Source: Thermoanaerobaculia bacterium
GTDB lineage: Bacteria; Acidobacteriota; Thermoanaerobaculia; Multivoradales; Multivoraceae
Length of the DNA: 64,000 nt
Assembly: GCA_942492505.1 (NCBI GenBank)
Contig: CALOFD010000013.1
Coordinates: 10,756-74,755, forward strand
Direction of reading: 5' to 3'
Every line of letters begins with the position of its first letter. Within the stretch, counting starts at the first letter, position 1. Position numbers and translations under genes: made by a program. The notes below the pieces were generated by a model. That model was not told the DNA's origin. It searched no databases and saw only the letters and a list, made by a program, of their open reading frames with translations. This document shows, piece by piece, positions 2,081-46,307 of this stretch.

Positions 2081-4165
2081 ATGGCACGCAAGGTACCGCT
2101 GGAGCGGATTCGCAATATCGGCATCATGGCCCACATCGATGCCGGCAAGACCACGACGACTGAGCGGATCCTCTATTACACCGGCGTCAGTTACAAGATC
2201 GGTGAAGTCCACGATGGCGCAGCCACGATGGACTGGATGATCCAGGAGCAGGAGCGCGGCATCACCATCACGGCCGCCGCGACGACCTGTTTCTGGAAGG
2301 ACTATCGGATCAACATCATCGACACTCCGGGCCACGTCGACTTCACCGCTGAAGTCGAGCGTTCGCTGAGAGTCCTCGACGGTGCTGTCGCGGTGTTCGA
2401 TGCCGTTGCCGGCGTCGAGCCGCAGTCCGAGACCGTCTGGCGCCAGGCCAACAAGTACCACGTACCGCGCATCGCCTTCGTCAACAAGATGGACCGCGTC
2501 GGCGCCAACTTCAAGCGCACCGTCGACATGATGGTCAGTCGCCTCGACGGCCGTCCGGTGGCCCTCCAGCTGCCGTGGGGCATCGAGGAGAACCTCCAGG
2601 GTGTCATCGATCTGGTCGAGATGAAGGCTGTTCACTACTCGGGTGACAACCTCGGCGCCGACTACAGCATGGTCGACATCCCCGAGGACCTGCAGGCCGA
2701 GGCCGAGGAGTGGCGCGAGAAGATGGTCGCCGCGGTTGCCGAGACCGACGAGGGTCTGCTCGAGAAGTACCTCTCCGGCGACGAGATCGGCAACGACGAG
2801 CTGCGAGCCGCCATCCGGCGCGCCACGATCGCCGACCAGCTGCATCCCGTTCTGTGCGGCAGCGCGTTCAAGAACAAGGGCGTGCAGCCGTTGCTCGACG
2901 CCGTCATCGAGTTCCTGCCTTCGCCGATCGAAGTCGCTTCGGTCGAGGGTCATCTGCCCGGCGACGAGGAGAGTGTCGAGACTCGCGAGACCTCCGACAA
3001 GGACCCGTTCTCGGCCCTGGTCTTCAAGATCATGACCGACCCCTTCGTCGGTCAGCTCGCCTACATCCGCGTCTACTCGGGCGGCATCCGCACGGGCGAC
3101 AGCATCCTCAACGCCGCTCACGGAAAGAAGGAGCGGGTCGGTCGTCTCCTCAAGATGCACGCCGACAAGCGCGAAGAGATCGAGCAGGTCTGGTCCGGCG
3201 ATATCGCTGCCGCCGTCGGGCTGAAGGACGTCCACACGGGCGACACCATCTGCGATCCCAACCACCCGATCATCCTCGAGGCGATGACCTTCCCGGAACC
3301 CGTCATGTCGGTTTCGATCGAGCTCAAGGCGAAGGCCGACCAGGGCAAGATGTCGATGGCGTTGGCGAAGCTCATGAAGGAAGACCCCACCTTCCAGGTG
3401 CGGACCGACCATGAGACCGGCCAGACCCTGATCTCCGGCATGGGCGAGCTCCACCTCGAGATCATCACGGATCGCCTGATCCGGGAGTTCGGAGTCGAGG
3501 GCAACATCGGCAAGCCCCAGGTCGCGTACCGCGAATCGGTCACCCGTGAAGCCAAGGGAGACGGGCGCTTCGTTCGTCAGTCCGGCGGTCGCGGTCAGTT
3601 CGGCCACTGCCAGATCATCCTGCGGCCGGCCGATCCCGAGGGCCCGGAGCTGATCTTCAACAACCAGATCGTCGGTGGCTCCATCCCGAAGGAATTCATC
3701 AAGCCGATCGAGCAGGGCATCCGCGAGGCGATGGAGACCGGACCGCTGGCGGGCTATCCGCTGACGGCCGTCGAGGTCGATCTCTACGACGGCTCCTTCC
3801 ACGAGGTCGACTCCTCCGAGGTGGCGTTCAAGATCGCCGGATCGATGGCGTTCCAGGACGCCACCCGCAAGGCGGCTCCGGTTCTCCTCGAGCCGGTGAT
3901 GGCGGTCGAGACGACGACGCCCGAGGAGTACATGGGCGACGTCATCGGCGACCTCAATTCCCGCCGCGGGCGGATTTCCGAGATGGAGCCGCGCGGCAAC
4001 GTGCAGGTGATTTCAGCGAAAGTTCCACTGGGCGAGATGTTCGGCTACACCACCGACCTGCGCTCGTTGACCCAGGGACGCGCGACCTCGGTGATGCAGT
4101 TCCATGCCTACGAGCCCGCGCCCAAGAACGTTTGTGACGAGGTCGTCGCGAAAGCCGCCGGCTGA
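2081..4165 (+). CDS. fusA: Elongation factor G
   Basis: 694-aa intact ORF. G domain [31 protein letters not shown]; canonical position after rpsG. Confidence 0.97.
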
Positions 4166-4193: not shown

Positions 4194-5387
<1,194 letters not shown>

Positions 5388-5417
5388 CGAGTCGTAACCG
5401 GTACCGAGGACAGCGAT

Positions 5418-5735
<318 letters not shown>

Positions 5736-5745
5736 GAGCGCTCCG

Positions 5746-6375
5746 ATGCCTGGAATTCTCGGTCGAAAAGTGGGCATGACCCAGATCTATGGTGAGGACG
5801 GCGTCGTCGTCCCCGTCACCCTGATCCATGCCGGCCCGTGCGTCGTCTTGCAGCGCAAGACGCAGGACAGTGACGGCTACGAGGCGGTCCAGGTCGGCCT
5901 GGTGGAGGCGAAGCCGCCCCGCAAGGTCAGCCAGCCGCAGCGCGGTCACTTCAAGAAGGCCGGCGCCGATCCGGTGCGGACGATCGAAGAGTTCCGCGTC
6001 GACGCCGGCGACGAACTCGGAGTCGGAGATGAGATCAAGGTCTCGGTCTTCGGTGAGAACGACTTCGTCGACATCGTCGGCACCAGCAAGGGCAAGGGTT
6101 TCCAGGGCGTGATGAAGCGTCACAACTTCGGCGGCGGCCGTGCGACCCACGGTTCGATGTTCCATCGTGCTCCGGGCTCGATCGGCCAGGCCTCCTACCC
6201 GTCGCGTGTCTTCCCCGGCGTGAAGCTGCCCGGACAGATGGGCAACAAGCGCATCACCATGAAGAACCTGCGCGTCGTGAAGATCGACGAGGACCAGAAC
6301 CTGCTCTACATCCGCGGTGCAGTTCCGGGCGCTCGCGGCAGCTACGTCACCGTTCGGTCGGCGAAGAAGGGTTGA
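5746..6375 (+). CDS. rplC: 50S ribosomal protein L3
   Basis: ATG at 5746 gives [15 protein letters not shown]...; the upstream part of the 5701 ORF overlaps rpsJ and is not L3-like. Confidence 0.95.
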
Positions 6376-19029: not shown

Positions 19030-21120
19030 TCAGTGCTCTTCTTCTTCGTGGCGCTTGTTCGCGGCGATCACCTGTTGCTGGATGTTGGCCGGCATCTCCT
19101 CGTAGTGGGAGTAGTTCATGGTGAAGCTGGCCCGGCCCTGGGTCATCGAAGTGAGAGCGGGGGAGTAGTCGAGCATCTCGGCCATCGGCACCAGGGCCTT
19201 GATCACCTGATGGCCTCCATCGAGGGCGTCCATGCCCTGGGGTCGTCCACGGCGCTGGGAGAGATCGCTCATCACGTCTCCGGTGTACTCCTCGGAGAGC
19301 GAGATCTCCACCTGCATCATGGGTTCGAGGAGCACCGGTGCGGCCCTGGACATGGCGTCCTTGAAGGCCAGGGAGCCGGCGATCTTGAAAGCCATCTCGG
19401 ACGAATCGACGTCATGGTACTGCCCGTCCTGCAGTCGCACACGTAGATCGACGACCGGGAACGACGTCGAGTAGCCGAGTTCGGCGGCTTCGCGGATTCC
19501 CTTCTCGACGGCGGGCCGGTAGTTCTGGGGAATGGCTCCGCCGAAGATCTCGTCGATGAACTCGAATTCCTCGCCGCGCGGCAGCGGCTCGAGGCTGATT
19601 CGACAGTCCGCGAACTGACCGCGTCCGCCGCTCTGCTTCTTGTGGCGGCCGTGTCCCTGGGCCGGTCGTCGAATCGCTTCCCGGTACGGGACCTTCGGCG
19701 GATGCAGGATGACGTCGACCTTGAACCTTGAGTGCAGCTTCGCCACGGCGATCTCGACGTGGAGCTGACCGGCTCCTGACAGCAGGTATTCACCGGTCTG
19801 TTCGTCGCGGCCGGCGTGCAGGGCGATGTCCTCGTCCATCAGGCGGTGGACGGCTTCGCCGATCTTCTCGTCGTCGCCCTTCGACTTCGGTTCCACCGCG
19901 AAGGAGATCGCCGGGGTGGGAGCGACGGGGAAGGCGAGTTTCACCGGCGCCGCCTTGTCACACAGGGTGTCGCCGGTGTTCGAGATCTTGAGTTTGGCAA
20001 CGGCGACGATGTCGCCGCAGATGGCGCGGTCGACGTTCTCGCCCTGCTTGCCCTGGATGTGCAGCAGGTGGCCGACCCTCTCGGCCTCCTCGGCACGACT
20101 GTTCCAGAAGGTGCTGTCGGAGTTCAGGGTGCCGCTTACGACCCTCAACAGCGAGACGCGTCCGCTGAAGGGGTCGTTGTTGGTCTTGAAGATCAGCGCC
20201 GAAGCGGGCGCATCGGGCGACAGCTCCACTTCGGTCGCTTCGCCGGCGATATTGGTGGCCGGAAAGGGAACGCGGTCCTGGGGTGAGGGAAACAGATCGA
20301 CGAAGGCGTCGAGGACCGCTGAAGTGCCGATTCCGTGACCGGCCGCTGTGGCCATGACCGGGAAGATCTGACGCGTGGCGATGGCCTTGCGCAGCCCCTC
20401 AGCCAGTTCCTCCGAGGTCAGGGTGCCCTCCTCGAAGAACTGCTCCATCAGTTCGTCATCGCTCTCGGCGACCGCTTCGACGATCTGGCTTCGCCAATCG
20501 GCGACGGCCTCGGAGAGATCCTCGGGTACGGGGCCCTCGTCGGCCTTGCCGTTGCCGTCACGGGTGAAGGTCAGGGCCTTCTCGGAGAGCAGGTCGACGA
20601 CGCCGGAGAACTCACTCTCCTGGCCGATCGGCAGGAAGAGCGGCAGGACACCGCGTCCGAACTTCTCCCGCAGACTGAGAACGAGGGTGTCGAAGTCGGC
20701 GCGTTCGCGGTCCATTCGGGTGGCGATGAGGGCCACCGGCTGCTCCATCTCCTCGCAGGTCTTCCAGAGTCGATTCGTCGAAACCTGGATCCCCGACGAG
20801 CCGTCGATGCACAGGCCGACCGCGTCCGCCACCCGGATGCCGCTGCGGATCTCGCTCGAGAACATCGGCAGGCCGGGGCAGTCGATGATGTTGACCTTGT
20901 GGTGTCTCCAGGGAGCGTAGACCGCCGACAGGCTGATCGAGATCGACCGTGCGATCTCCTCCGGGTCGAAGTCCGTGAGGGTGTTGCCGTCTTCGACCTT
21001 GTTCAGACGGGTGGTGACCCCGGATGTGTAGAGGAGGGCACTGACGAGGGTCGTCTTGCCCGTGTCGTTGTGTCCCACGATCGCGACGTTGCGGAGTCGG
21101 TCCACCGAATCGACCTTCAT
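19030..21120 (-). CDS. Elongation factor G paralog (EF-G2-like translational GTPase)
   Basis: 696-aa ORF; G domain NVAIVGHNDTGKTTL, DCPG, TRMD. EF-G domains II-V are recognisable (GQLHVEIAV..., GGRGQFADC...) but clearly diverged from fusA at 2081. Confidence 0.9.
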   Translation of the reverse strand: MKVDSVDRLRNVAIVGHNDTGKTTLVSALLYTSGVTTRLNKVEDGNTLTDFDPEEIARSISISLSAVYAPWRHHKVNIIDCPGLPMFSSEIRSGIRVADAVGLCIDGSSGIQVSTNRLWKTCEEMEQPVALIATRMDRERADFDTLVLSLREKFGRGVLPLFLPIGQESEFSGVVDLLSEKALTFTRDGNGKADEGPVPEDLSEAVADWRSQIVEAVAESDDELMEQFFEEGTLTSEELAEGLRKAIATRQIFPVMATAAGHGIGTSAVLDAFVDLFPSPQDRVPFPATNIAGEATEVELSPDAPASALIFKTNNDPFSGRVSLLRVVSGTLNSDSTFWNSRAEEAERVGHLLHIQGKQGENVDRAICGDIVAVAKLKISNTGDTLCDKAAPVKLAFPVAPTPAISFAVEPKSKGDDEKIGEAVHRLMDEDIALHAGRDEQTGEYLLSGAGQLHVEIAVAKLHSRFKVDVILHPPKVPYREAIRRPAQGHGRHKKQSGGRGQFADCRISLEPLPRGEEFEFIDEIFGGAIPQNYRPAVEKGIREAAELGYSTSFPVVDLRVRLQDGQYHDVDSSEMAFKIAGSLAFKDAMSRAAPVLLEPMMQVEISLSEEYTGDVMSDLSQRRGRPQGMDALDGGHQVIKALVPMAEMLDYSPALTSMTQGRASFTMNYSHYEEMPANIQQQVIAANKRHEEEEH

Positions 21121-21176
21121 TGGAGCTCCCTGGAGCGTTGTTGAGAAACCCTGAGTTTATCGTAGGGGCCGGCTGA

Positions 21177-21288
21177 GGATCGCACGCGATCTCGCCGTGT
21201 CCTCGCTCATCCCCTTGTGCGACGTAGCTCCGCTACGCCTCCGCGGGTCCTCGCTGCGGTACGACGATCTCACGCACGCTTCTCAGCC
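21177..21288 (+). repeat. M1 module (about 112 nt conserved structured repeat), copy A
   Basis: About 93% identical to 25335-25446. Also homologous to the reverse complements of 25806-25911 and 43291-43406. Confidence 0.85.
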
Positions 21289-21314: not shown

Positions 21315-21442
21315 GCGGCAACCGTTCCGATTGCGGCAACCGTTCCGATTGCGGCAACCGTTCCGATTGCGGCAACCGTTCCGGTTGCGGCAACCGTTCC
21401 GGTTGCGGCAACCGTTCCGGTTGCGGCAACCGTTCCGGTTGC
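21315..21442 (+). repeat. Tandem array, 7 x 18 bp (GCGGCAACCGTTCCGRTT); each unit forms the hairpin GCAACCG-ttc-CGGTTGC
   Basis: Counted directly: units start at 21315, 21333, 21351 (CGATT variant) and at 21369, 21387, 21405, 21423 (CGGTT variant). There are no spacers. Confidence 0.95.
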
Positions 21443-21704: not shown

Positions 21705-21757
21705 CCCCATCGAGGGCTGATCGATTTCTCCCCGGGCCCCGACTGATAGCGGTGACC
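21705..21757 (-). repeat. M2 module (about 50 nt repeat), copy A
   Basis: The reverse complement GGTCACC..CAGTCGGGGCCCGGGGAGAAATCGATCAGCCCTCGATGGGG matches 42862-42907. Confidence 0.75.
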
Positions 21758-21885
21758 GTGCGGCCGTTGGGAACGCTTCGCGTTCCTTGGCAGTTGCTTC
21801 GCAACTGCGGTGTCTGGACTCGGGTGGTCTTGGAGCTTCTGGCCTTCTGGATCGGGCCGTGGATGGAGGCTGGCCTGGGGTCGCT

Positions 21886-25334: not shown

Positions 25335-25446
25335 GGATCGTACCCAATCTCGCCGTGTCCTCCTTCGTCCCCTTGTGCGACGTAGCTCCGCTACGCCTCC
25401 GCGGGTCCTCCCTGCGGTACGACGATCTCACGCACGCTTCTCAGCC
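25335..25446 (+). repeat. M1 module, copy B1
   Basis: Near-identical to 21177-21288. Confidence 0.85.
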
Positions 25447-32352: not shown

Positions 32353-32379
32353 TAGGCCGCGGACGATCGGGTCAGAAGT

Positions 32380-32494
32380 CTGATCGAAGATCAGACGGAT
32401 CGCTGATCGAAGATCAGACGGATTGCTGATCGCAGATCAGACGGATTGCTGATCGAAGATCAGACGGATTGCTGATCGAAGATCAGACGGAGGC
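32380..32494. repeat. Tandem array, 5 x 23 bp (CTGATCGAAGATCAGACGGATTG); each unit contains the hairpin CTGATC-gaa-GATCAG
   Basis: Units start at 32380, 32403, 32426 (gca loop), 32449 and 32472. The array holds 10 GATC sites and lies between convergent genes. Confidence 0.95.
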
Positions 32495-34634: not shown

Positions 34635-35612
34635 GTGGAACACTCGCAAGACATGCGCGACCTGGCGCCAGAAGAGAAGAAGGTTCACCCCTGGGAAGAT
34701 GCTCCTGACGGCGCCGGCGGCAGCTTTGGCGGCTGGCTGCGCCAGCATCGCGAGATTCGCGGCATCTCGTTGCGTGAGATCTCCGACAGCTCGAAGATCA
34801 GCATTCGTTATCTCGAGGCACTGGAGGCCAGCCGGTTTTCCGTTCTGCCTGCTCCGGTCTTCGCGAAGGGCTTTCTGAGGCAGTACGCAAGCCTCGTGGG
34901 CCTCGACCCGGACGAGGTCGTCAACTTCTACATCGTCGCCCAGAAGGACTCTCCCGACGAAGAAGACCTGCTTCCGCAGGGTTCGCGACTCCATTCGGCC
35001 ACCCACTGGGCCTACGGCTTCTTTCTCACCTTCGGGATCGTGGCGCTGTTCGGGATCGTGGCACTGTTGTCCTTTCTGGCCGAGCGGCGACAACCCGCCG
35101 ATGAAGACCCGCCCCCGATGGCGGCGCCGGTCTTCCAGAACTCTGTTCTCCCGACGCCGATCGAGGCTGAGCAACCTTCGGTGCCGCTGCTCGTGACCCT
35201 GGACTTCGTGCAGGACTGCTGGGTCGAGGCCGTGGTCGACGGCGAGAACACGGTGGCTGAACTGCGCGTTCAGGGTGAATCCCTGCGGATTCAGGCTCAG
35301 CGAAGCGTCGCACTGACTCTCGGCAACGCACCGGGGGTCAGCATCCAGGTGAATGGCGAGGACTACCTGTTGCCTGAGGGAACGGGAGAGACCATCGCCG
35401 GGCACATGATCCTCGCTCCGGTCGTGCCGGAGCCGATCGCCCTGTCCGGGGACGACGATTCCCCGACGGGATCTGAGGGCGGCGGTGCGACCTCCGGCGG
35501 CGGAGAGGACTCGCCCGACGTCGATTCCGGCCCGCCAGGTGGACAGCTGCCCTCCACCGGGGGCCGGTCTCCGATCGGCGGTTCGACCGGCTCGCCGGCA
35601 CCCCGACCCTGA
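34635..35612 (+). CDS. RodZ-like cytoskeleton protein (XRE-type HTH, TM segment, DUF4115-like domain, low-complexity tail)
   Basis: FGGWLRQHREIRGISLREISDSSKISIRYLEALE (HTH); TM FFLTFGIVALFGIVALLSFL; the C-terminal beta-rich domain LVTLDFVQDCWVEAVVDG. The start could instead be the ATG at 34653. Confidence 0.75.
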   Translation: MEHSQDMRDLAPEEKKVHPWEDAPDGAGGSFGGWLRQHREIRGISLREISDSSKISIRYLEALEASRFSVLPAPVFAKGFLRQYASLVGLDPDEVVNFYIVAQKDSPDEEDLLPQGSRLHSATHWAYGFFLTFGIVALFGIVALLSFLAERRQPADEDPPPMAAPVFQNSVLPTPIEAEQPSVPLLVTLDFVQDCWVEAVVDGENTVAELRVQGESLRIQAQRSVALTLGNAPGVSIQVNGEDYLLPEGTGETIAGHMILAPVVPEPIALSGDDDSPTGSEGGGATSGGGEDSPDVDSGPPGGQLPSTGGRSPIGGSTGSPAPRP

Positions 35613-35621
35613 GGGCTGTCC

Positions 35622-36662
35622 TTGGACGAATTCTCGACCGAGAAGGAACTCGCGGCTCGGGTGTTGTCGGGAGAGGAGCCCCGCCTGCTGGAACTCGCAG
35701 CGCAGGGACTCCTGCCGATCTCGGTCGAGAAGCTGATCGAACTGCAGCTCGAACTGGGCCGATCGAGCGATCCTCGTCTGGCCGAGATGGCGATCGCCAC
35801 TCTCAAGGAGTCGGAGCCGGCGGCCGTCAGTGAAGTTCTCGAGTCGGCCTCGGAGGAGGTTCTCGAGTTCGCCTGCCGCAAGCTCGCCCACCCGGTGATT
35901 CTCGAGAGCGTCCTGATGCGCCCGAGGCTCGATCCGTCGCTGATCGGCTACCTGGCGTCGTGGGTCGGGCCTGACCTGCAGGAGTTCGTACTGCTGCGTC
36001 AGGACGAGATCCGCTCCCGGCCCGAGATCCTCGGACGTCTGGCGTCGAATCCGTCGGTGAGCCGACGCTCGCTGCGTTTGATCGAGGAGTATCGGCGCCA
36101 TCTGGTCGGGCAGCGGCGCGACTCTGGAGTCGGCCAGGTCGGGGACGTCGAGGAGGTCTTCGATCTCGACGATCGGCCGTCTCCGGAGGAGATCCTCGAG
36201 GTCATCGAGCAGGCCGCCCAGGCACCGGTGGAGGGCGAGGTCGATGTCGAGTCGGGACTGAGCGAGGGGCAGATCCGATCGCTTCCCGTGGGCCTGCGGA
36301 TGAAGCTGTGCTTCGGCGCCACTCGAACCGTCCGTGACATCCTGTTGCGTGACAACAATCCCCAGATCGCCGTCGGAGCGTTGAAACACTCCTCGATCTC
36401 CGACGCCGAGGTCGAAGGCATCGCTCAGCAGCGCAACGTCGTGCAGGAGGTGCTGGTGGAAATCTCGCAGAAGCGACGATGGATGTCGCGCTACGGCACC
36501 ATGCTGGCCCTGGTGCGAAATCCGAGGACGCCCGTTGGGATCGCCCTGCGCTACGTGCCGCGTGTCGCCGTGCGTGACCTGCGAACCCTGAGCATGGACC
36601 GCAGCATCGCCGATCCGGTCCGCAAGACCGCACGACGGGTCTACAGTCAGAAGATCGGCTAG
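35622..36662 (+). CDS. Hypothetical alpha-helical repeat protein
   Basis: 346-aa ORF, TTG start 10 nt after the rodZ-like stop. Coding-like composition, no motif I can name. Confidence 0.55.
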   Translation: MDEFSTEKELAARVLSGEEPRLLELAAQGLLPISVEKLIELQLELGRSSDPRLAEMAIATLKESEPAAVSEVLESASEEVLEFACRKLAHPVILESVLMRPRLDPSLIGYLASWVGPDLQEFVLLRQDEIRSRPEILGRLASNPSVSRRSLRLIEEYRRHLVGQRRDSGVGQVGDVEEVFDLDDRPSPEEILEVIEQAAQAPVEGEVDVESGLSEGQIRSLPVGLRMKLCFGATRTVRDILLRDNNPQIAVGALKHSSISDAEVEGIAQQRNVVQEVLVEISQKRRWMSRYGTMLALVRNPRTPVGIALRYVPRVAVRDLRTLSMDRSIADPVRKTARRVYSQKIG

Positions 36663-41074: not shown

Positions 41075-42647
41075 TCAGATCGACGGCGACGCTGGGGTCT
41101 GCAGGGACAGCGCGAACTCCATGGCGTCGGCGAGGGCCGCCCAGCTGGCCTCGATGATGTTGGTGGACGCTCCGACGGTCGTGAACCGGTGTTGGCCGAG
41201 TTCCGAGTCGATCAGCACCCGGGTGGTGGCAGCGGTCCCCTCGGCGTCGAGAATGCGCACCTTGTAGTCCCGCAGTTCCAGCTCCTCGAGCTGCGGATAG
41301 TGCGGCAGGAGGGCCTTGCGCAGGGCGAGGTTGAGGGCGTTGACCGGTCCGTTGCCGTCGGCGACGGTGTGGGCGATTTCCTCACCGATCCGCACCTTGA
41401 CGGTCGCCTCCGAGAAGAGCCCGCGGCCCTCCCGGTGTTCGACCACGGCCATGAAGTCGACCAGCTCGAAAGGCGCCTGGTAGTCGTCTTCGGCGCGCTG
41501 CAGCATGACCTGCACCGAGGCCTCGGCGCCTTCGAAGGTGTAGCCCTTGTTCTCGAGTTCCTTGACCTGTTGCAGGACCTTGCGGGCGTTCTCGTGGCGC
41601 GAGTCGAGTCCGTGACGATCGGCGAGGTCGAGGATGTTGCCGCGCCCGGAGAGCTCCGAGACGACGCTTCGGCTGATGTTCCCGACCGTGCTCGGGTCGA
41701 TGTGCTGGTAGCTGTCGACGGCCTTGCGCATGGCGGCGACGTGGATGCCGCCCTTGTGGGCGAAGGCGCTGTGGCCGACGAACGGCAGGTGGTCGTCGTG
41801 GGGGATGTTGGCCAGTTCGGCGACGAAGCTCGACAGTTCGGTGAGTTTCGACAGCTGTTCGGCGCTGACGCACTCGATCCCCATCTTGAGCTGCAGGTCG
41901 GGGACGATCGCCGTCAGGTTGGCGTTCGCGACCCGTTCACCGTAGCCGTTGATGGTGCCCTGAACCATCACGCAGCCTGCCCGTACCGCGGCGAGCGAGT
42001 TCGCGACGCCACAGCCGCCGTCGTCGTGGGTGTGGATCCCCAGCCGGGTCGAGGTCGCCGCTCGCACCGGCCGTGACGATCTCCTCGATCTCCCAGGGAA
42101 GCGAGCCGCCGTTGGTGTCGCACAGCACCAGGAAATCCGCGCCGGCCTTCTCGGCCGCCAACAGTGTCCCCAGCGCGTGATCCGGATCGGCCTTCCAGCC
42201 GTCGAAGAAGTGCTCGGCGTCGTAGACCACCTCACGCCCGAGATCCTTCAGATAGGCGACGCTGTCGCCGATCATCGCCCGATTCTCTTCGGCGGTCGTT
42301 TCGATCACCTCACGGACGTGCAGATCCCAGCTCTTCCCGACGAGCGTCACCACCGGTGTGTCGGCGGTCACCAACGCCTGGATGTTGGCGTCCTCCGAGC
42401 ACGACGTGTCCTTGTACCGAGTGCTGCCGAAGGCACAGATCCGCGCCTGCTCGAGGTCGAGTTCCCGTACCCGCTCGAAGAACTCGACGTCCTTCGGATT
42501 CGATCCCGGCCAGCCCCCCTCGATGTAGGGCACCCCGAACTCGTCCAGCCGAGCCGCGATCTTCAGCTTGTCGCTCAGCGACAGCGAGATCGACTCGCGT
42601 TGCGTTCCGTCGCGTAACGTCGTGTCGTAGAGAAAGAATTCGCTCAT
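41075..42647 (-). CDS. cimA: (R)-citramalate synthase-type LeuA-family enzyme, frame-disrupted as written (one extra G in CCGGCC at 42067-42072)
   Basis: N-terminal [21 protein letters not shown]...[10 protein letters not shown]...[11 protein letters not shown]. The C-terminal ORF ...[28 protein letters not shown]...LeuA dimerisation domain is in another frame. 1573 nt minus 1 gives 524 codons. Confidence 0.85.
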
Positions 42648-42861
42648 CGTGCTGCTCTCCTGAAAGGAGGCCCCAGGCCCCCGTTGACGGACCGATCAGG
42701 CCGTCGCAGGAATGCAACTCGCAACGGCAAGAGCCGTCACGGCGTTCTCCTCAGAAGCGAATGACACGAGATCCCTCAACATGGGCCGCGGATCGTACCC
42801 CGCACCCTCCCCCTCGAGCAAGCGAGCGGCAACCCCCCAGGGTGGCCCCGGCCGCGGGCAA

Positions 42862-42907
42862 GGTCACCAGTCGGGGCCTGGGGAGGAAGCGATCAGCCCT
42901 CGATGGG
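42862..42907 (+). repeat. M2 module, copy C
   Basis: GGTCACCAGTCGGGGCCTGGGGAGGAAGCGATCAGCCCTCGATGGG matches the reverse complement of 21705-21757. Confidence 0.75.
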
Positions 42908-43290
42908 ACGCGGGCAACCCTTCGGGTTGCGGCAACCCCTCGGGTTGCTTGGCAGTTGCTTCGCAACTGCCGGCAACAAGAAGGGGCGAACCGTTCCAGT
43001 TGCTCGGAGGCTCACACTTTGCTTGCTTCGGACGTCGCGAGGGAATGGAGTTCCCGCCAGCGATCTCCGAAGGGTTCCCGGCGTGCTTCGAATCGTTGCA
43101 GCGAGGGTCAGCGCCGCTCGTCCCCAACCAGGGCTGCCCCCCCCGGTCACCCTTGAGCCACGGCCTCCCAGGTTCGCGCTCAAGTCCGATTCGAAATCGA
43201 TTGTGAAGACAATCGCCGCACATCGAAGCCTTTCCCGACCACTGTCGCCAGGAGTTCGCGTAAAGCGAGATGCGACCCTTAGGGTTGCCC

Positions 43291-43406
43291 CTGAGAGTGC
43301 GTAGCGTGCGTCGAATCGTCGTAGCGCAGGAGCGAGGCGCGGAGGGGTAGCGGAGCTACCCCGCACAAGCCGAGTGACGAGCACACGGCGAGGCGGCGTA
43401 CGATCC
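43291..43406 (-). repeat. M1 module, copy C
   Basis: The reverse complement GGATCGTACGCCGCCTCGCCGTGTGCTCG...GGGGTAGCTCCGCTACCCC...CTACGACGATTCGACGCACGC aligns to M1. Confidence 0.8.
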
Positions 43407-43412
43407 GCACTC

Positions 43413-46307
43413 TCAATCGACCTGGCGGAGGAGTTCTAGCAACTCATCCCGACTGAAGATCTTGCCGAGTTTTGGATGATCCGCCTGCACGACGCTCGAC
43501 ATGAGCTTGCGCTTGCGGTCGATCATCGCCGCGATCTTCTCCTCGAGAGTGTCCTCGGTGACCAGCTTGAAGACCTGGACGGCACGTTTCTGGCCGATCC
43601 GGTAGACCCGGTCGGTGGCCTGATCCTCCTTCGCCGCGTTCCACCAGCGGTCGTAGTGGATGACCACGGAACCGGCGACCAGATCGATGCCGGTGCCGCC
43701 GGCGCGCAGACTGCCGAGGAAGACCCGGCAGTCGGGGTCCTGGTTGAAGCGATTGACGACTTCGCCGCGCTTGCGAGTCGATCCGGTGAGTTTCACCAGC
43801 GGCACGCGGCGTTCGCGCAGGTAGTCCTCCATGATCGAGATCATGCCGAGGTACTGTGAGAACACGACCACCTTCTGGCCGCTCTGCAGGCTCTCCTCGA
43901 GCAGGTCGACGAACAGGTCCCACTTGCTCGAGCGATGGTCACGCCACTCCTCGGCCTTTCCGATGGCCAGCGCCGGATGGTCGCAGATCTGCTTGAGCTG
44001 GTTGAGGAGCGCGAAGATGTGGATGTAGGGCAGGGGATCCTTGCCCTTGCGGATGGTCTCCGCCAGCGCCATGCCCCGGGTGTCGATCGTGCTGCGGTAG
44101 AGCTGGCGCTGCTCGTCGCTCAGCGAGCAGGTGCGGATGTCTTCGATCTTCTCCGGCAGTTCGTGCAGGACCGCGGTCTTCAGGCGACGCAGCACGAAGG
44201 GAGCGATGAGCCGACGCAGGTCTTCGAGCGTGGAGTCGTCGGGCTCGTCTCGAGAACTGGCGCCGTAGCGATCGAAGTAGTCCTCGTCTTCGCCGAGGTA
44301 GCGGGGCAGCACGAGGTCGAAGAGATTCTTGAGCTCGGAAAGGGAGTTCTCGATCGGCGTACCGGTGAGGCCGACCTTCATCCGGGCCGGCACGGTGATC
44401 GCGGCCCGGTGGGCCTGGGTCTCCTGGTTCTTGATCTGCTGGACCTCGTCGAAGACCACCAGGCTCCAGGGGACCTCGCTCAACTTGGCGACGTCGTTTC
44501 GCAGGACGCCGTAGGAGGCGATCACGACGTCGGCCTCCTCGAGGGTCTGGTCGAGATCGCGCTGCGAACCATGGTAGACGGCGGCTCGCAGCCCCGGGGC
44601 GTACTGAGCGATCTTGTCGCGCCAGTGGCTGATGACCGTGCGCGGGCAGATCACGAGGTTGGGATCCTCGACGCCGTGCTGTTCGCGGATCAGGACCATC
44701 AGCGCCATCGCCTGATGGGTCTTGCCGAGGCCCATGTCGTCACACAGCAGGCCGGCGAGATGATTCTCGTAGAGGAAGTGGAGCCACTCGACACCGAGGG
44801 TCTGGTAGGGCCGCAGTTGGCTCGTGAGGCCCTTCAACGGTACGAGGGGCTGGGAGGGGCGGTAGTCCAGCAGACGGTGGAGGATGTCGGTGCGGTCCTG
44901 GGACGCTTCGATCCTCACCGGCTTGGAGGTCGACGACTTGAGTCGCAGGATCTGCGCCGAGGAGAGCTTCAGGCTCTCGTTGGGCGGGGCGTCGGCCTCG
45001 CGAGCACCGATGAACCCTTCCACACCGCGCAACTCGGGGGCGCTCAGGTCGACCCAGCCGAGGTCGGTCTCGAGGTATGCGAGACCGCGGCGCTTGGCGT
45101 CGGCGATGTCCCGGATCGCCACTCGCGCGTCACCGAAGGCGTAATGCACGTCGAGTTCATTTTCGTCCTGGGCGGCGATCTCGAGATGATCGAATTCGCG
45201 CAGGATCCGCAGTTCGCGGGTCGGATCGTCGAGCACGACCTTGGGAACCGGGTCGTCGAAGGGTTCCCGCTGTCCCCACTGGGGGACCGGGGTGGGTGTG
45301 CGCTTGCGAGCCCGGTGGAGGGCCGCGGCGCCGTCGGGATCCTCGAACTCGGTGAAGACGCTGAGTTCCGGGATGAAGGCGAGATTGCCGTAGATGAAGG
45401 GCTCGATTCGCTCGGGCGCGATGCCGGTCTCTTCATAGTCGAGGACGGCCTGAACGCTCTCGGCCCAGCCGCTGCCGCTCTCGAGGCTGGCGCTGTTCGA
45501 GAGAATCGACTCGAGCGAGCCGATGGCGATGTCCAGGGGTGGCTCGAGTCCGCCCTCGGCGGCGAACTCGAGGACGCTGGGAACTCGTGAACGAGGCACG
45601 TAGAAGGTGGCGGAGGGCTTGCCGGACTGTCGATGGTAGGTCAGCCCGAGGATGCCCCGACTGCGATGGACGGAGAGTTCGTAGGCTCCCTCCTCGTCTT
45701 CGAACTCGCGGAAGCAGTGGTAGGCGAAGCGGTACCACAGGCTCTCCTCGAACGATTGACGATTGGTCTTCATGCCGGCGCGGTTCAGATGCTGCTCTTC
45801 GGAGCTGCGCAGGAAGATGGACAGCTTGTCGATGAGTTCGGCCCGGTCCTGAAAGCCGATCTCGGGGCTGACCTTGCCGAGCCTCTCGAGCAGTCGCAGC
45901 GCCCCAGGGGAGATCTCGTGGTAGTCGACGAGAGCCTCGCCGGCGGTGTTGTAGAAGCGCAGCCGAGGGCCGTCTTCGCGTTCGATGCGCGTTACGGTCG
46001 AAGTCACGAAGGCTTGCGGGTCGCCCTCGAAGAGCCGATGGGCCAGCTCGTGCCAGGGCGACGCGGAGAAGATCTCCCCGAAGGAGCGACCGCGGTACTT
46101 CTTGCGGAACAGCTTGATCTGGCGACCGAGTTCGGCGAGGTGCTTGCAGGTTCGTCGTCGTCCCGCGGTGCAGCTGCAGAAGCGTAGGGGGCGGGTCGAG
46201 CCGGCGGCGTTCTCGAGGTAGATCGCGGCGCCCGGATCGGCGTCGTTCAGCGCCGTCAGGACTCCGATGCCGGAGCGGTGAAACTCGAGGTTGGAGAACT
46301 GCGTCAT
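43413..46307 (-). CDS. SNF2-family helicase/translocase with N-terminal SWIM zinc finger
   Basis: 964 aa; SWIM CSCTAGRRRTCKH; SNF2 motifs LCDDMGLGKT (I), DEVQQIKN (II), LTGTPIENS (III); the helicase C-terminal domain ...GGTGIDLVAGSVVIHYDRWWNAAKEDQATDRVYRIGQ. Confidence 0.9.
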   Translation of the reverse strand: MTQFSNLEFHRSGIGVLTALNDADPGAAIYLENAAGSTRPLRFCSCTAGRRRTCKHLAELGRQIKLFRKKYRGRSFGEIFSASPWHELAHRLFEGDPQAFVTSTVTRIEREDGPRLRFYNTAGEALVDYHEISPGALRLLERLGKVSPEIGFQDRAELIDKLSIFLRSSEEQHLNRAGMKTNRQSFEESLWYRFAYHCFREFEDEEGAYELSVHRSRGILGLTYHRQSGKPSATFYVPRSRVPSVLEFAAEGGLEPPLDIAIGSLESILSNSASLESGSGWAESVQAVLDYEETGIAPERIEPFIYGNLAFIPELSVFTEFEDPDGAAALHRARKRTPTPVPQWGQREPFDDPVPKVVLDDPTRELRILREFDHLEIAAQDENELDVHYAFGDARVAIRDIADAKRRGLAYLETDLGWVDLSAPELRGVEGFIGAREADAPPNESLKLSSAQILRLKSSTSKPVRIEASQDRTDILHRLLDYRPSQPLVPLKGLTSQLRPYQTLGVEWLHFLYENHLAGLLCDDMGLGKTHQAMALMVLIREQHGVEDPNLVICPRTVISHWRDKIAQYAPGLRAAVYHGSQRDLDQTLEEADVVIASYGVLRNDVAKLSEVPWSLVVFDEVQQIKNQETQAHRAAITVPARMKVGLTGTPIENSLSELKNLFDLVLPRYLGEDEDYFDRYGASSRDEPDDSTLEDLRRLIAPFVLRRLKTAVLHELPEKIEDIRTCSLSDEQRQLYRSTIDTRGMALAETIRKGKDPLPYIHIFALLNQLKQICDHPALAIGKAEEWRDHRSSKWDLFVDLLEESLQSGQKVVVFSQYLGMISIMEDYLRERRVPLVKLTGSTRKRGEVVNRFNQDPDCRVFLGSLRAGGTGIDLVAGSVVIHYDRWWNAAKEDQATDRVYRIGQKRAVQVFKLVTEDTLEEKIAAMIDRKRKLMSSVVQADHPKLGKIFSRDELLELLRQVD

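Follow-up and report, generated by a model that had tools for sequence, protein, structure and literature searches.

Copy C, an intergenic mosaic in a Thermoanaerobaculia genome, read as a pile-up of small mobile repeats with a structured 125-nt module

The intergenic stretch known as copy C raises the question of what the repeated unit is: one mosaic element of 620 bp, or the smaller modules of which it is composed. Copy C lies at 42783-43406 of the window, by which the whole 64,000-nt stretch of DNA analysed is meant (contig CALOFD010000013.1, positions 10,756 to 74,755 of the forward strand), and an initial annotation had described it as the same mosaic element as another stretch of the window, copy A, in opposite orientation. 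The window belongs to a metagenome-assembled genome (MAG) of a Thermoanaerobaculia bacterium, referred to here as G000, which comprises 80 contigs and 3.77 Mb with 65.6% GC and is 73% complete. Rather than a discrete 620-bp element, copy C is a pile-up of small mobile repeats, none of it coding. It has probably arisen by the accumulation of small non-autonomous mobile repeats, among which the largest module, M1, would represent a family of miniature inverted-repeat transposable elements (MITEs) that is associated with CTAG/TAG and carries a conserved structured core.

Modules of copy C and their recurrence

Direct reading of the sequence recovered all of the motifs listed for copy C within 1 nt of the positions first given; the CGATTGT-gaag-ACAATCG hairpin, placed at 43197 by the initial annotation, starts at 43198. 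A repeat finder aligned the M1 arm at 43298-43409 with 21174-21285 over 112 nt (76% complementary) and with 25335-25443 over 109 nt (77% complementary). Local-alignment scores were compared with a background of 300 dinucleotide-preserving shuffles, against which both the M1 similarity (score 60 vs 11.6 ± 1.9, z = 25) and the M2 similarity (score 35 vs 7.9 ± 1.4, z = 19.6) were significant, so that the resemblance goes beyond the short hairpins. The order of the modules, M2-a ... b-a-M1, agrees with the reverse complement of copy A as had been proposed, and the non-coding modules that copy C truly shares with copies A and B comprise M1 and M2, hairpins of the a/c type and, beside M1, a degenerate b-a pair.

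The description of these loci as the same mosaic element did not survive the comparison. Homology to copy A covers less than half of the 620 bp; the 319-nt centre shows short-hairpin similarity only when 42972-43250 is compared with the interior of copy A (z = 2.8). No other copy of this centre was found across the 3.77-Mb genome. The description is further weakened by the rarity of M2, which has just three copies in the genome (copy C, 21706-21758 and C18:101943), and by the M1-bearing intergenic gaps, since each of the 35 is a different arrangement of M1 with the hairpins a, b, c and n.

Searching the whole MAG by iterated nhmmer identified about 49 copies of M1 at 35 loci, only 75-90% alike. 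With a length of about 125 nt and overlapping open reading frames (ORFs) that match no Pfam family, M1 is short, non-coding and multi-copy, as a MITE should be. The small hairpins fall into the families GCAACC[C/G]..GGTTGC, GGAGTTCGC..GCGAACTCC and GCAGTTGC..GCAACTGC, and 60-80% of them lie within 400 nt of an M1; for the GCAACCC stem, this applies to 39 of 50 genome copies. A 45-nt a-b double hairpin recurs at many loci, either adjoining M1 or nested at M1 position ~17, and the a-a-c block of copy C (42914-42971), which consists of three small GC-rich hairpins, is matched at dozens of loci at 86-95%. A few palindromic modules are thus combined variably in intergenic positions downstream of genes, which is the organisation of bacterial interspersed mosaic elements (BIMEs). 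As the modules recur and the mosaics all differ, the repeated unit is the module, and copy C is one BIME-like mosaic among many. Small hairpins also form two tandem arrays in the window: seven 18-nt GCAACCG-ttc-CGGTTGC units inside copy A (21315-21442), and five GATC-rich 23-nt CTGATC-gaa-GATCAG units at 32357-32494.

The initial annotation had further given copy C inverted bounding ends. As an architectural motif this layout is real: one truncated M1 and one full M1 face each other, their 5' ends pointing outward. The M1 5'-end motif has four matches in the window, every one at an M1 start, compared with 0.23 expected, and in the truncated left copy the similarity to M1 ends after ~19 nt. The inverted M1-pair layout recurs in copy B, at C18:48176 and at C66:20569. 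In MAGs labelled as other phyla, at least ten [CTAG][M1->][spacer][<-M1][CTAG] composites were found; two units often face each other there across a ~135-nt palindromic spacer, with CTAG at the outer ends only.

The M1 fold and its spread

The consensus structure of M1, computed with RNAalifold from 19 full-length copies, is a rod-like hairpin of 38 pairs, of which 22 show compensatory double changes. In this alignment 97.6% of the cells are paired, compared with 31-42% when the partners are slid, and none of 500 shuffles reached the observed values. For 52 copies from seven other genomes, 94.4% of the cells are paired and 32 of the 38 pairs are compensatory, and for 90 distinct copies from other-phylum MAGs the corresponding values are 90% and 33 of 38, both alignments being fitted to the covariance model, which favours pairing. 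In the terminal stem of copy C, five of nine positions are off consensus and all of them are compensated (GAGAGTGCG...CGCACTCTC); the single-sequence fold of this M1 has an energy of -58.6 kcal/mol.

The two strands of M1 are not equivalent. Consensus fold energies are -64.9 kcal/mol for one strand and -39.4 kcal/mol for the other. The better-folding strand is the reverse complement of the copy-A orientation and is antisense to the gene whose stop codon M1 touches; at copy C, where M1 has the same orientation as the helicase gene, it is the plus strand of the window. G·U cells exceed A·C cells by 85:4 in this genome and by 274:19 and 58:15 in the other-genome alignments, lineage consensus structures contain 4-6 G·U and 0-2 A·C pairs, and single-step departures from Watson-Crick pairing lead to G·U in 37 cases and to A·C in 15. 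A 5'-GA/5'-GA internal loop is conserved on one strand, whereas the opposite strand would read TC/TC, and the sequences of the unpaired loops are conserved as well. As modelled here, the covariation is very strong and the M1 core is kept as a one-strand-specific fold.

Using the covariance model R1, full-length M1 was detected in 8 of 41 relatives, with 23 copies in G006, 15 in G028 and 2-7 in the others, and in 19 of 251 genomes of the class, mostly in 1-3 copies. Blast clustering that included the low-copy genomes revealed no recurrent neighbour gene, home locus or partner gene of M1. An exact 21-base core motif, searched in all species representatives, was present in MAGs labelled Polyangiaceae, 'delta proteobacterium', Geobacteraceae, Thermodesulfobacteriota, Candidatus Binatia and Thermoanaerobaculia, and R1 matches these loci over the full length of the model. 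The core is thus full-length in MAGs labelled Acidobacteriota, Myxococcota, Geobacteraceae, Thermodesulfobacteriota and Binatia, and it stands within differing terminal arms: GGCCGGC... in G000 and G006, GCCCGCATTATTCATGAG... in G028, GGAGCCYGTCCGAGTAAT... in family f16 and CAGGTTGCTGAAAAAGG... in the Polyangiaceae/'delta' MAGs.

Two variants of M1 were noted among these genomes. At locus L086 (G240:C1:3216000-3227000), a tandem array with a period of ~135 nt (about 5045-5957) constitutes a satellite-like amplification of the core and intersperses five partial cores (model positions 23-104) with two full ones. A subgroup in G006 (L015-L017, L019, L021, L029 and L030) has a conserved ~62-nt 3' tail that ends in CCTAG and holds a promoter-like TTGATT-17-TATTGG pointing away from M1; judged from its sequence, such an outward promoter-like tail could make one orientation harmful.

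Gene ends, movement and the role of the core

According to crude gene calls (longest ORFs with a GC3 filter), on which the orientation statistics are based, divergent gaps hold just 2 of the 49 M1 copies, and M1 follows the direction of the genes in 21 of 24 co-directional gaps. The correlation of orientation with flanking gene direction, a matter raised by the initial annotation, is therefore present, and its cause is that M1 has its 5' end on the upstream gene's stop codon. M1 usually starts at a TAG or TGA stop codon; in at least 12 copies a TAG serving as the upstream gene's stop immediately precedes the 5' end (copy-A orientation), and the same junction rule is seen in the closed genome G006 and in other genomes. 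Many 5' junctions read GTAG followed by GG, and TTAG, CTAG and TGA occur too. In G000, CTAG is depleted ~10-fold (1148 sites vs ~12000 expected), with 31% of the sites at called stop codons and 24% inside ORFs. A CTAG/TA target, the G that forms the first base of the element, and this depletion and stop bias would together let insertions survive mainly on stop codons, where TAG is rebuilt. In G006 the trend with replication direction, taken by eye from match coordinates, is weak (15 of 23). Di Nocera et al. reported that the termini of GTAG-tagged repetitive extragenic palindromes (REPs) often provide the TAG stop of flanking ORFs, and that REPs favour unidirectional and convergent gaps (PMC3733652). 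The placement of M1 on stop codons is therefore not new in kind.

A structured site with fixed orientation after a stop codon could also be an attC-like site of an integron-type system, folding on the bottom strand. M1 does begin at a stop codon, its length of ~125 nt is similar to that of the VCR repeats of Vibrio, and its folding strand is antisense to the upstream ORF. However, integron integrase (TIGR02249, above the curated cut-off) was found in 2 of 8 M1-positive and 9 of 33 M1-negative genomes and is absent from both G000 and G006, and none of the alignments shows RYYYAAC/GTTRRRY core sites at the M1 termini. The upstream genes are ordinary ones, such as those for a helicase and lexA, and M1 forms tandem and inverted clusters without intervening ORFs. 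The distribution of the integrase and the missing core sites led us to reject this explanation, which we consider extremely improbable. At least seven near-identical tyrosine recombinases of ~308-316 aa were seen in G006 (contig C1, for example at 6274047-6274853, 6759113-6759919 and 34968-35777) and not in G000; they give partial integron-integrase-like matches of up to 122 bits, below the cut-off, and probably represent another mobile element.

Evidence for movement comes from the relatives of M1 with symmetric ends. Clean terminal inverted repeats are present in f16 (GGAGCCYGTCCGAGTAAT.../...ATTACTCGGACRGGCTCC), in G028 and in the 'delta'/Polyangiaceae-type arms, and those of f16 and G028 have TA within CTAG on their flanks. 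For f16, comparison of four congeners yielded two orthologous empty sites. At the cleaner site, which was aligned pairwise, the flanks are 88-90% identical and are separated by 6 nt in G173 and 183 nt in G239. The empty site reads C-TA-GGAG in G146 and G235, the filled site reads C-TA-[181 nt]-TA-AGAG in G239, and the empty site of G173 has TC at the target position. The other site was read by eye, as the insertion had misled MAFFT; here the stop of a convergent gene is TA+G when the site is filled, the G coming from the element, and TGA or TAA when it is empty. At locus L083, CTAA stands on both sides. The symmetric f16 and G028 units have no orientation bias relative to genes (9 vs 7), which leaves asymmetric ends or post-insertion selection as the source of the bias in G000. 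In the G000 subfamily the two ends pair (helix 1) but differ, with TAG followed by GGCCGGC... at one end and ...GCCT[N]AGG at the other, the tail being GCCT[C/A/T]AGG. Target-site duplication models of TA, TNA and YTAR were tried for this subfamily and discarded, as none fitted consistently; TTAG...CTAA flanks stand in inverted and not in direct orientation.

The f16-type termini also appear to be those of an insertion sequence (IS). In G235, the f16-type terminal repeat lies near ~48 contig ends, as is typical when an IS present in many copies interrupts the assembly, and at five contig ends it is followed by an ORF start, MDFMGKIFRAYEPDQMLLMPPSLSEWV, whose 27 residues match IS1182-family transposases (tblastn against plasmids, E ~3e-4). 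Pfam returned nothing for this 27-residue N-terminus, and only ~135 nt of the left end of the IS is assembled, the interior being missing. Eight IS1182-family copies are present in G006, each bounded by perfect inverted repeats with CTAG on either side, and an IS1182-family element of Halomonas begins with CTAG followed by GAGTCTG. Searches for IS1182 transposase in G012, G028, G036 and G240 found none, and a literature search on IS1182, CTAG and MITEs returned nothing directly relevant.

Two further elements share these sites or termini. A 143-nt MITE of G235 (L103-L106, where L105 is G235:C59:1-400) is present in high copy and at many contig ends; it has the same termini as the M1-bearing element (CTAG, GAGCCCGTCC...GGACAGACTC, CTAG) around an unrelated interior. 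At L116 and L119 in G006, a CTAG-flanked palindromic element of ~36 nt (CCAGAGGAAATGATA..CATCATTTCTTCTGG) immediately adjoins IS1182 copies. Several elements seem to have CTAG sites as common hot spots.

The symmetric-ended relatives insert at TA within CTAG and duplicate this target; in the MITE explanation, termini in common with IS1182-family (DDE) ISs would allow them to move as MITEs by cut-and-paste. With G as the first base of the element, TA+G would regenerate a TAG stop, and the surviving copies would sit on gene ends. For the window, this would mean that one M1 landed on or beside the helicase stop codon, that a second M1 (now truncated), 45-nt a-b/a-c units and M2 accumulated beside it, and that the whole gap has since decayed in place. 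The patchy distribution of M1, the empty sites and the lack of a recurrent neighbour were counted in favour of mobility.

Several observations weigh against this explanation. The termini of a MITE should be its conserved part, whereas M1 has a conserved core and termini that vary and covary. Target duplication and an IS1182 parent have their direct evidence in the symmetric f16 and G028 units and not in the subfamily of the window; the units of G000, G006 and the 'delta'/Polyangiaceae MAGs are asymmetric, with TAG on the 5' side only, a lineage-specific 3' tail and no clean duplication. The IS1182 termini in G006 (GAGTCTGCGCGGCAG) are unlike the M1 terminus (GGCCGGCCG), and IS1182 transposase was not detected in the 73%-complete G000. 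A palindromic CTAG target and a symmetric MITE predict no orientation bias, but the bias in G000 is at least 12 to 1. The reservations given above for the model-fitted alignments and for the gene calls belong here as well.

The asymmetric ends invite a different mechanism, in which M1 would be a long REP doublet with a 5' GTAG foot, the small hairpins would be REPs, and both would be mobilised through single-stranded DNA as REPs/REPINs by a REP-associated tyrosine transposase (RAYT; a Y1 HUH transposase). The asymmetric ends, one-sided TAG, unclear duplication and strand-specific fold of the window's subfamily all fit transposition of single-stranded DNA, many 5' junctions carry the GTAG foot, and G000 encodes a Y1-like ORF with an HUH motif (C59, 309 aa). 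The supply of TAG stops and the location in unidirectional or convergent gaps match GTAG-tagged REPs (PMC3733652). The foot is not conserved, however, given the TTAG, CTAG and TGA junctions, and the best-folding strand of M1 is opposite to the strand that bears (G)TAG. In the TnpA-REP system of Escherichia coli, it is the GTAG-bearing strand that the RAYT binds. The sole Y1-like ORF of G000 has neither M1 nor small hairpins on its contig, an absence that is no proof in a MAG of this completeness. Y1_Tnp was found in 34 of 41 relatives whether or not they carry M1, and in G039 M1 is present without any Y1 match. The related f16 subfamily, moreover, shows target duplication and IS1182-type termini, which are not produced by RAYTs. 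Mobilisation by a RAYT is accordingly judged unlikely.

The remaining alternative concerns what the M1 core does and is compatible with the MITE explanation. Since the fold is specific to one strand, the core may be a passenger with a role of its own, for example a transcript-insulating, -terminating or -stabilising RNA hairpin or a protein-binding structure. In a stronger version, the core would primarily be a functional structured RNA or protein-binding structure selected at gene ends, with mobility only as its vehicle; on the modelled fold it could serve as a one-direction terminator or insulator, an antisense-blocking hairpin, an RNase target or a small RNA. This version is possible, although we do not expect it to be correct. 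It is consistent with covariation that is held across labelled phyla while the terminal arms change, with G·U pairs and a GA/GA loop conserved on one strand only, with the conserved unpaired loops, and with the orientation bias in G000, which the insertion mechanism leaves unexplained. The 143-nt MITE of G235, with the same termini and another interior, indicates that the core is dispensable for mobility with those termini; being dispensable and yet conserved, the core behaves as selected cargo. On the other side, no conserved promoter adjoins the core in G000, no T-run follows the hairpin, no Rfam family matches, and where the neighbouring genes are co-directional, the strand that folds better runs antisense to the two of them. 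Orientation to genes is random in the symmetric subfamilies, and DNA processes that maintain palindromes could mimic the covariation.

Still more tentatively, and again on the strength of the modelled fold, the M1 core might be an undescribed, widespread structured motif, likeliest of RNA, that is conserved as cargo in at least five differently labelled phyla and functions on one strand. Its role could then be that of a direction-specific insulator or terminator, a processing site, a small RNA or even something ribozyme-like, and the mosaics of the window could be its decayed deposits. If the core is functional, it would represent a new widespread structured element, outside Rfam 15, that hitch-hikes on mobile DNA or is selected with it. 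For annotation, the 620-bp stretch and its sister loci are best regarded as repeat debris of an ordinary kind and not as a new system. The TA/CTAG target, the first-base G and the CTAG bias would supply a simple mechanistic reason for repeats lying exactly on stop codons.

The locus and its relation to known systems

The features of copy C and its flanking genes are collected in Table 1. The gap that contains copy C has 765 bp and separates the gene of an SNF2 helicase, whose ORF matches PF00176 (SNF2-rel_dom, E = 1.6e-63) and PF00271 (Helicase_C, E = 1.9e-17), from an HMGL/LeuA-type (cimA/leuA) gene. The ORFs of the copy C region matched no Pfam family. Rfam 15 gave no matches for the whole window at gathering thresholds and chance-level matches only for 42600-43450 with E up to 10. 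By sequence reading, the M1 on the minus strand spans 43291-43409. The centre of copy C holds two local hairpins according to an inverted-repeat search (43026-43038/43060-43072 and 43198-43215), and a scan of the centre for sigma-70-like and terminator-like sites found none; presumably it contains the promoter and 5' untranslated region signals of the HMGL/LeuA-type gene, or decayed repeat remnants.

Table 1. Features of copy C and the genes on either side (window coordinates)
Feature	Position	Strand	Basis and remarks
cimA/leuA-type synthase, HMGL-like N-terminal part	41937-42647	minus	flanks copy C downstream, outside the element; PF00682, E = 5.9e-22
GGCCGCGGATCGTAC, M1 5'-terminal motif, exact	42784-42798	plus	sequence read
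Truncated M1 5' terminus, GGCCGCGGATCGTACCCC	42784-42802	plus	exact match to M1 5'-end motif GGCCGNGGATCGYAC; faces the full M1 across the gap
M2 module, rare ~50-nt repeat	42855-42907	plus	83% complementary to 21706-21758 (53 nt)
Hairpin a, GCAACCC-ttc-GGGTTGC	42914-42930		sequence read
Hairpin a, GCAACCC-ctc-GGGTTGC	42932-42948		sequence read
Hairpin c, GGCAGTTGC-ttc-GCAACTGCC	42951-42971		sequence read
Unique non-coding centre	42972-43251		no second genomic copy; z = 2.8 vs copy A
Degenerate a-b double-hairpin unit	43252-43288	minus	directly 3' of M1; GCAACCCTAAGGGTCGC, then a decayed GGAGTTCGC-type hairpin
GCGACCC-tta-GGGTTGC hairpin	43272-43288	within a-b unit	sequence read
Full M1, ~125-nt rod-shaped hairpin	43291-43416	minus	covariance-model match G000:C13:54046-54171, 132.8 bits, model positions 1-126
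GTACGATCC	43398-43406	within M1 (minus)	sequence read
Helicase TGA stop	43413-43415	minus	base-paired into the M1 terminal stem (TGAGAGTGCG...CGCACTCTCA); ORF and junction alignment
SNF2-family helicase, 964 aa	43413-46307	minus	flanks copy C upstream, outside the element; ORF and Pfam

The cimA/leuA-type gene (41075-42647, minus strand) is divided between two overlapping frames, the second of which (41075-42235) contains the remaining HMGL part with HCS_D2 and LeuA_dimer; this division is a frameshift, a pseudogene or an error of the MAG assembly. Elsewhere in the window, an inverted similarity of 185 nt (72%) connects 3788-3972 and 19244-19428, two coding regions on opposite strands, and probably reflects paralogous translational GTPase genes, not a repeat element. 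Outside the window, ~750 bp of another G000 contig (C62:40925-41677) carry eight long (CG)n runs, the longest of 62 nt, which could form Z-DNA and are the source of ~180 perfect 7-bp hairpin matches in the genome scan.

Several families of bacterial repeats resemble M1 in part. ERIC/IRU, a 127-bp element of enterobacteria, and the Correia elements of Neisseria are imperfect palindromes of ~100-150 nt that insert at TA and lie in transcribed regions at gene ends, where they form RNA hairpins with orientation-dependent effects on neighbouring mRNAs. M1 is like them as an imperfect palindrome of ~100-150 nt at gene ends; unlike them, it has changing arms over several labelled phyla, and there is no sequence relationship. 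The BIMEs of E. coli are intergenic mosaics of REPs and other motifs downstream of genes (PMC6006769). The mosaics described here likewise combine a few palindromic modules variably, a resemblance of organisation and not of sequence homology; the modules differ in sequence and size, the main one having 125 nt compared with the 20-40 nt of a REP, and a link to a RAYT is lacking. GTAG-tagged REPs and REPINs share with M1 an end TAG that is often the stop of the flanking ORF, a preference for unidirectional and convergent gaps, and hairpin doublets (PMC3733652). They differ in that a subfamily related to M1 duplicates its target and shares termini with DDE-type ISs, and no RAYT is flanked by M1, the Y1 proteins showing no specific co-occurrence with it.

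MITEs of the IS1182 family (IS5-related, DDE) are small, non-coding and multi-copy and are distributed patchily, as M1 is. The symmetric relatives of M1 add to this likeness terminal inverted repeats, a TA/CTAG duplication, empty sites and termini identical to those of an IS with an IS1182-like ORF start. The subfamily of the window departs from it in its asymmetry, with no demonstrable duplication and no parent IS in the genome. The interior of M1 is conserved instead of its termini, with strong strand-specific covariation of a ~125-nt fold. The family thus inverts the usual pattern of a MITE: fold and loops are preserved across labelled phyla, while the arms that face the transposase are swapped.

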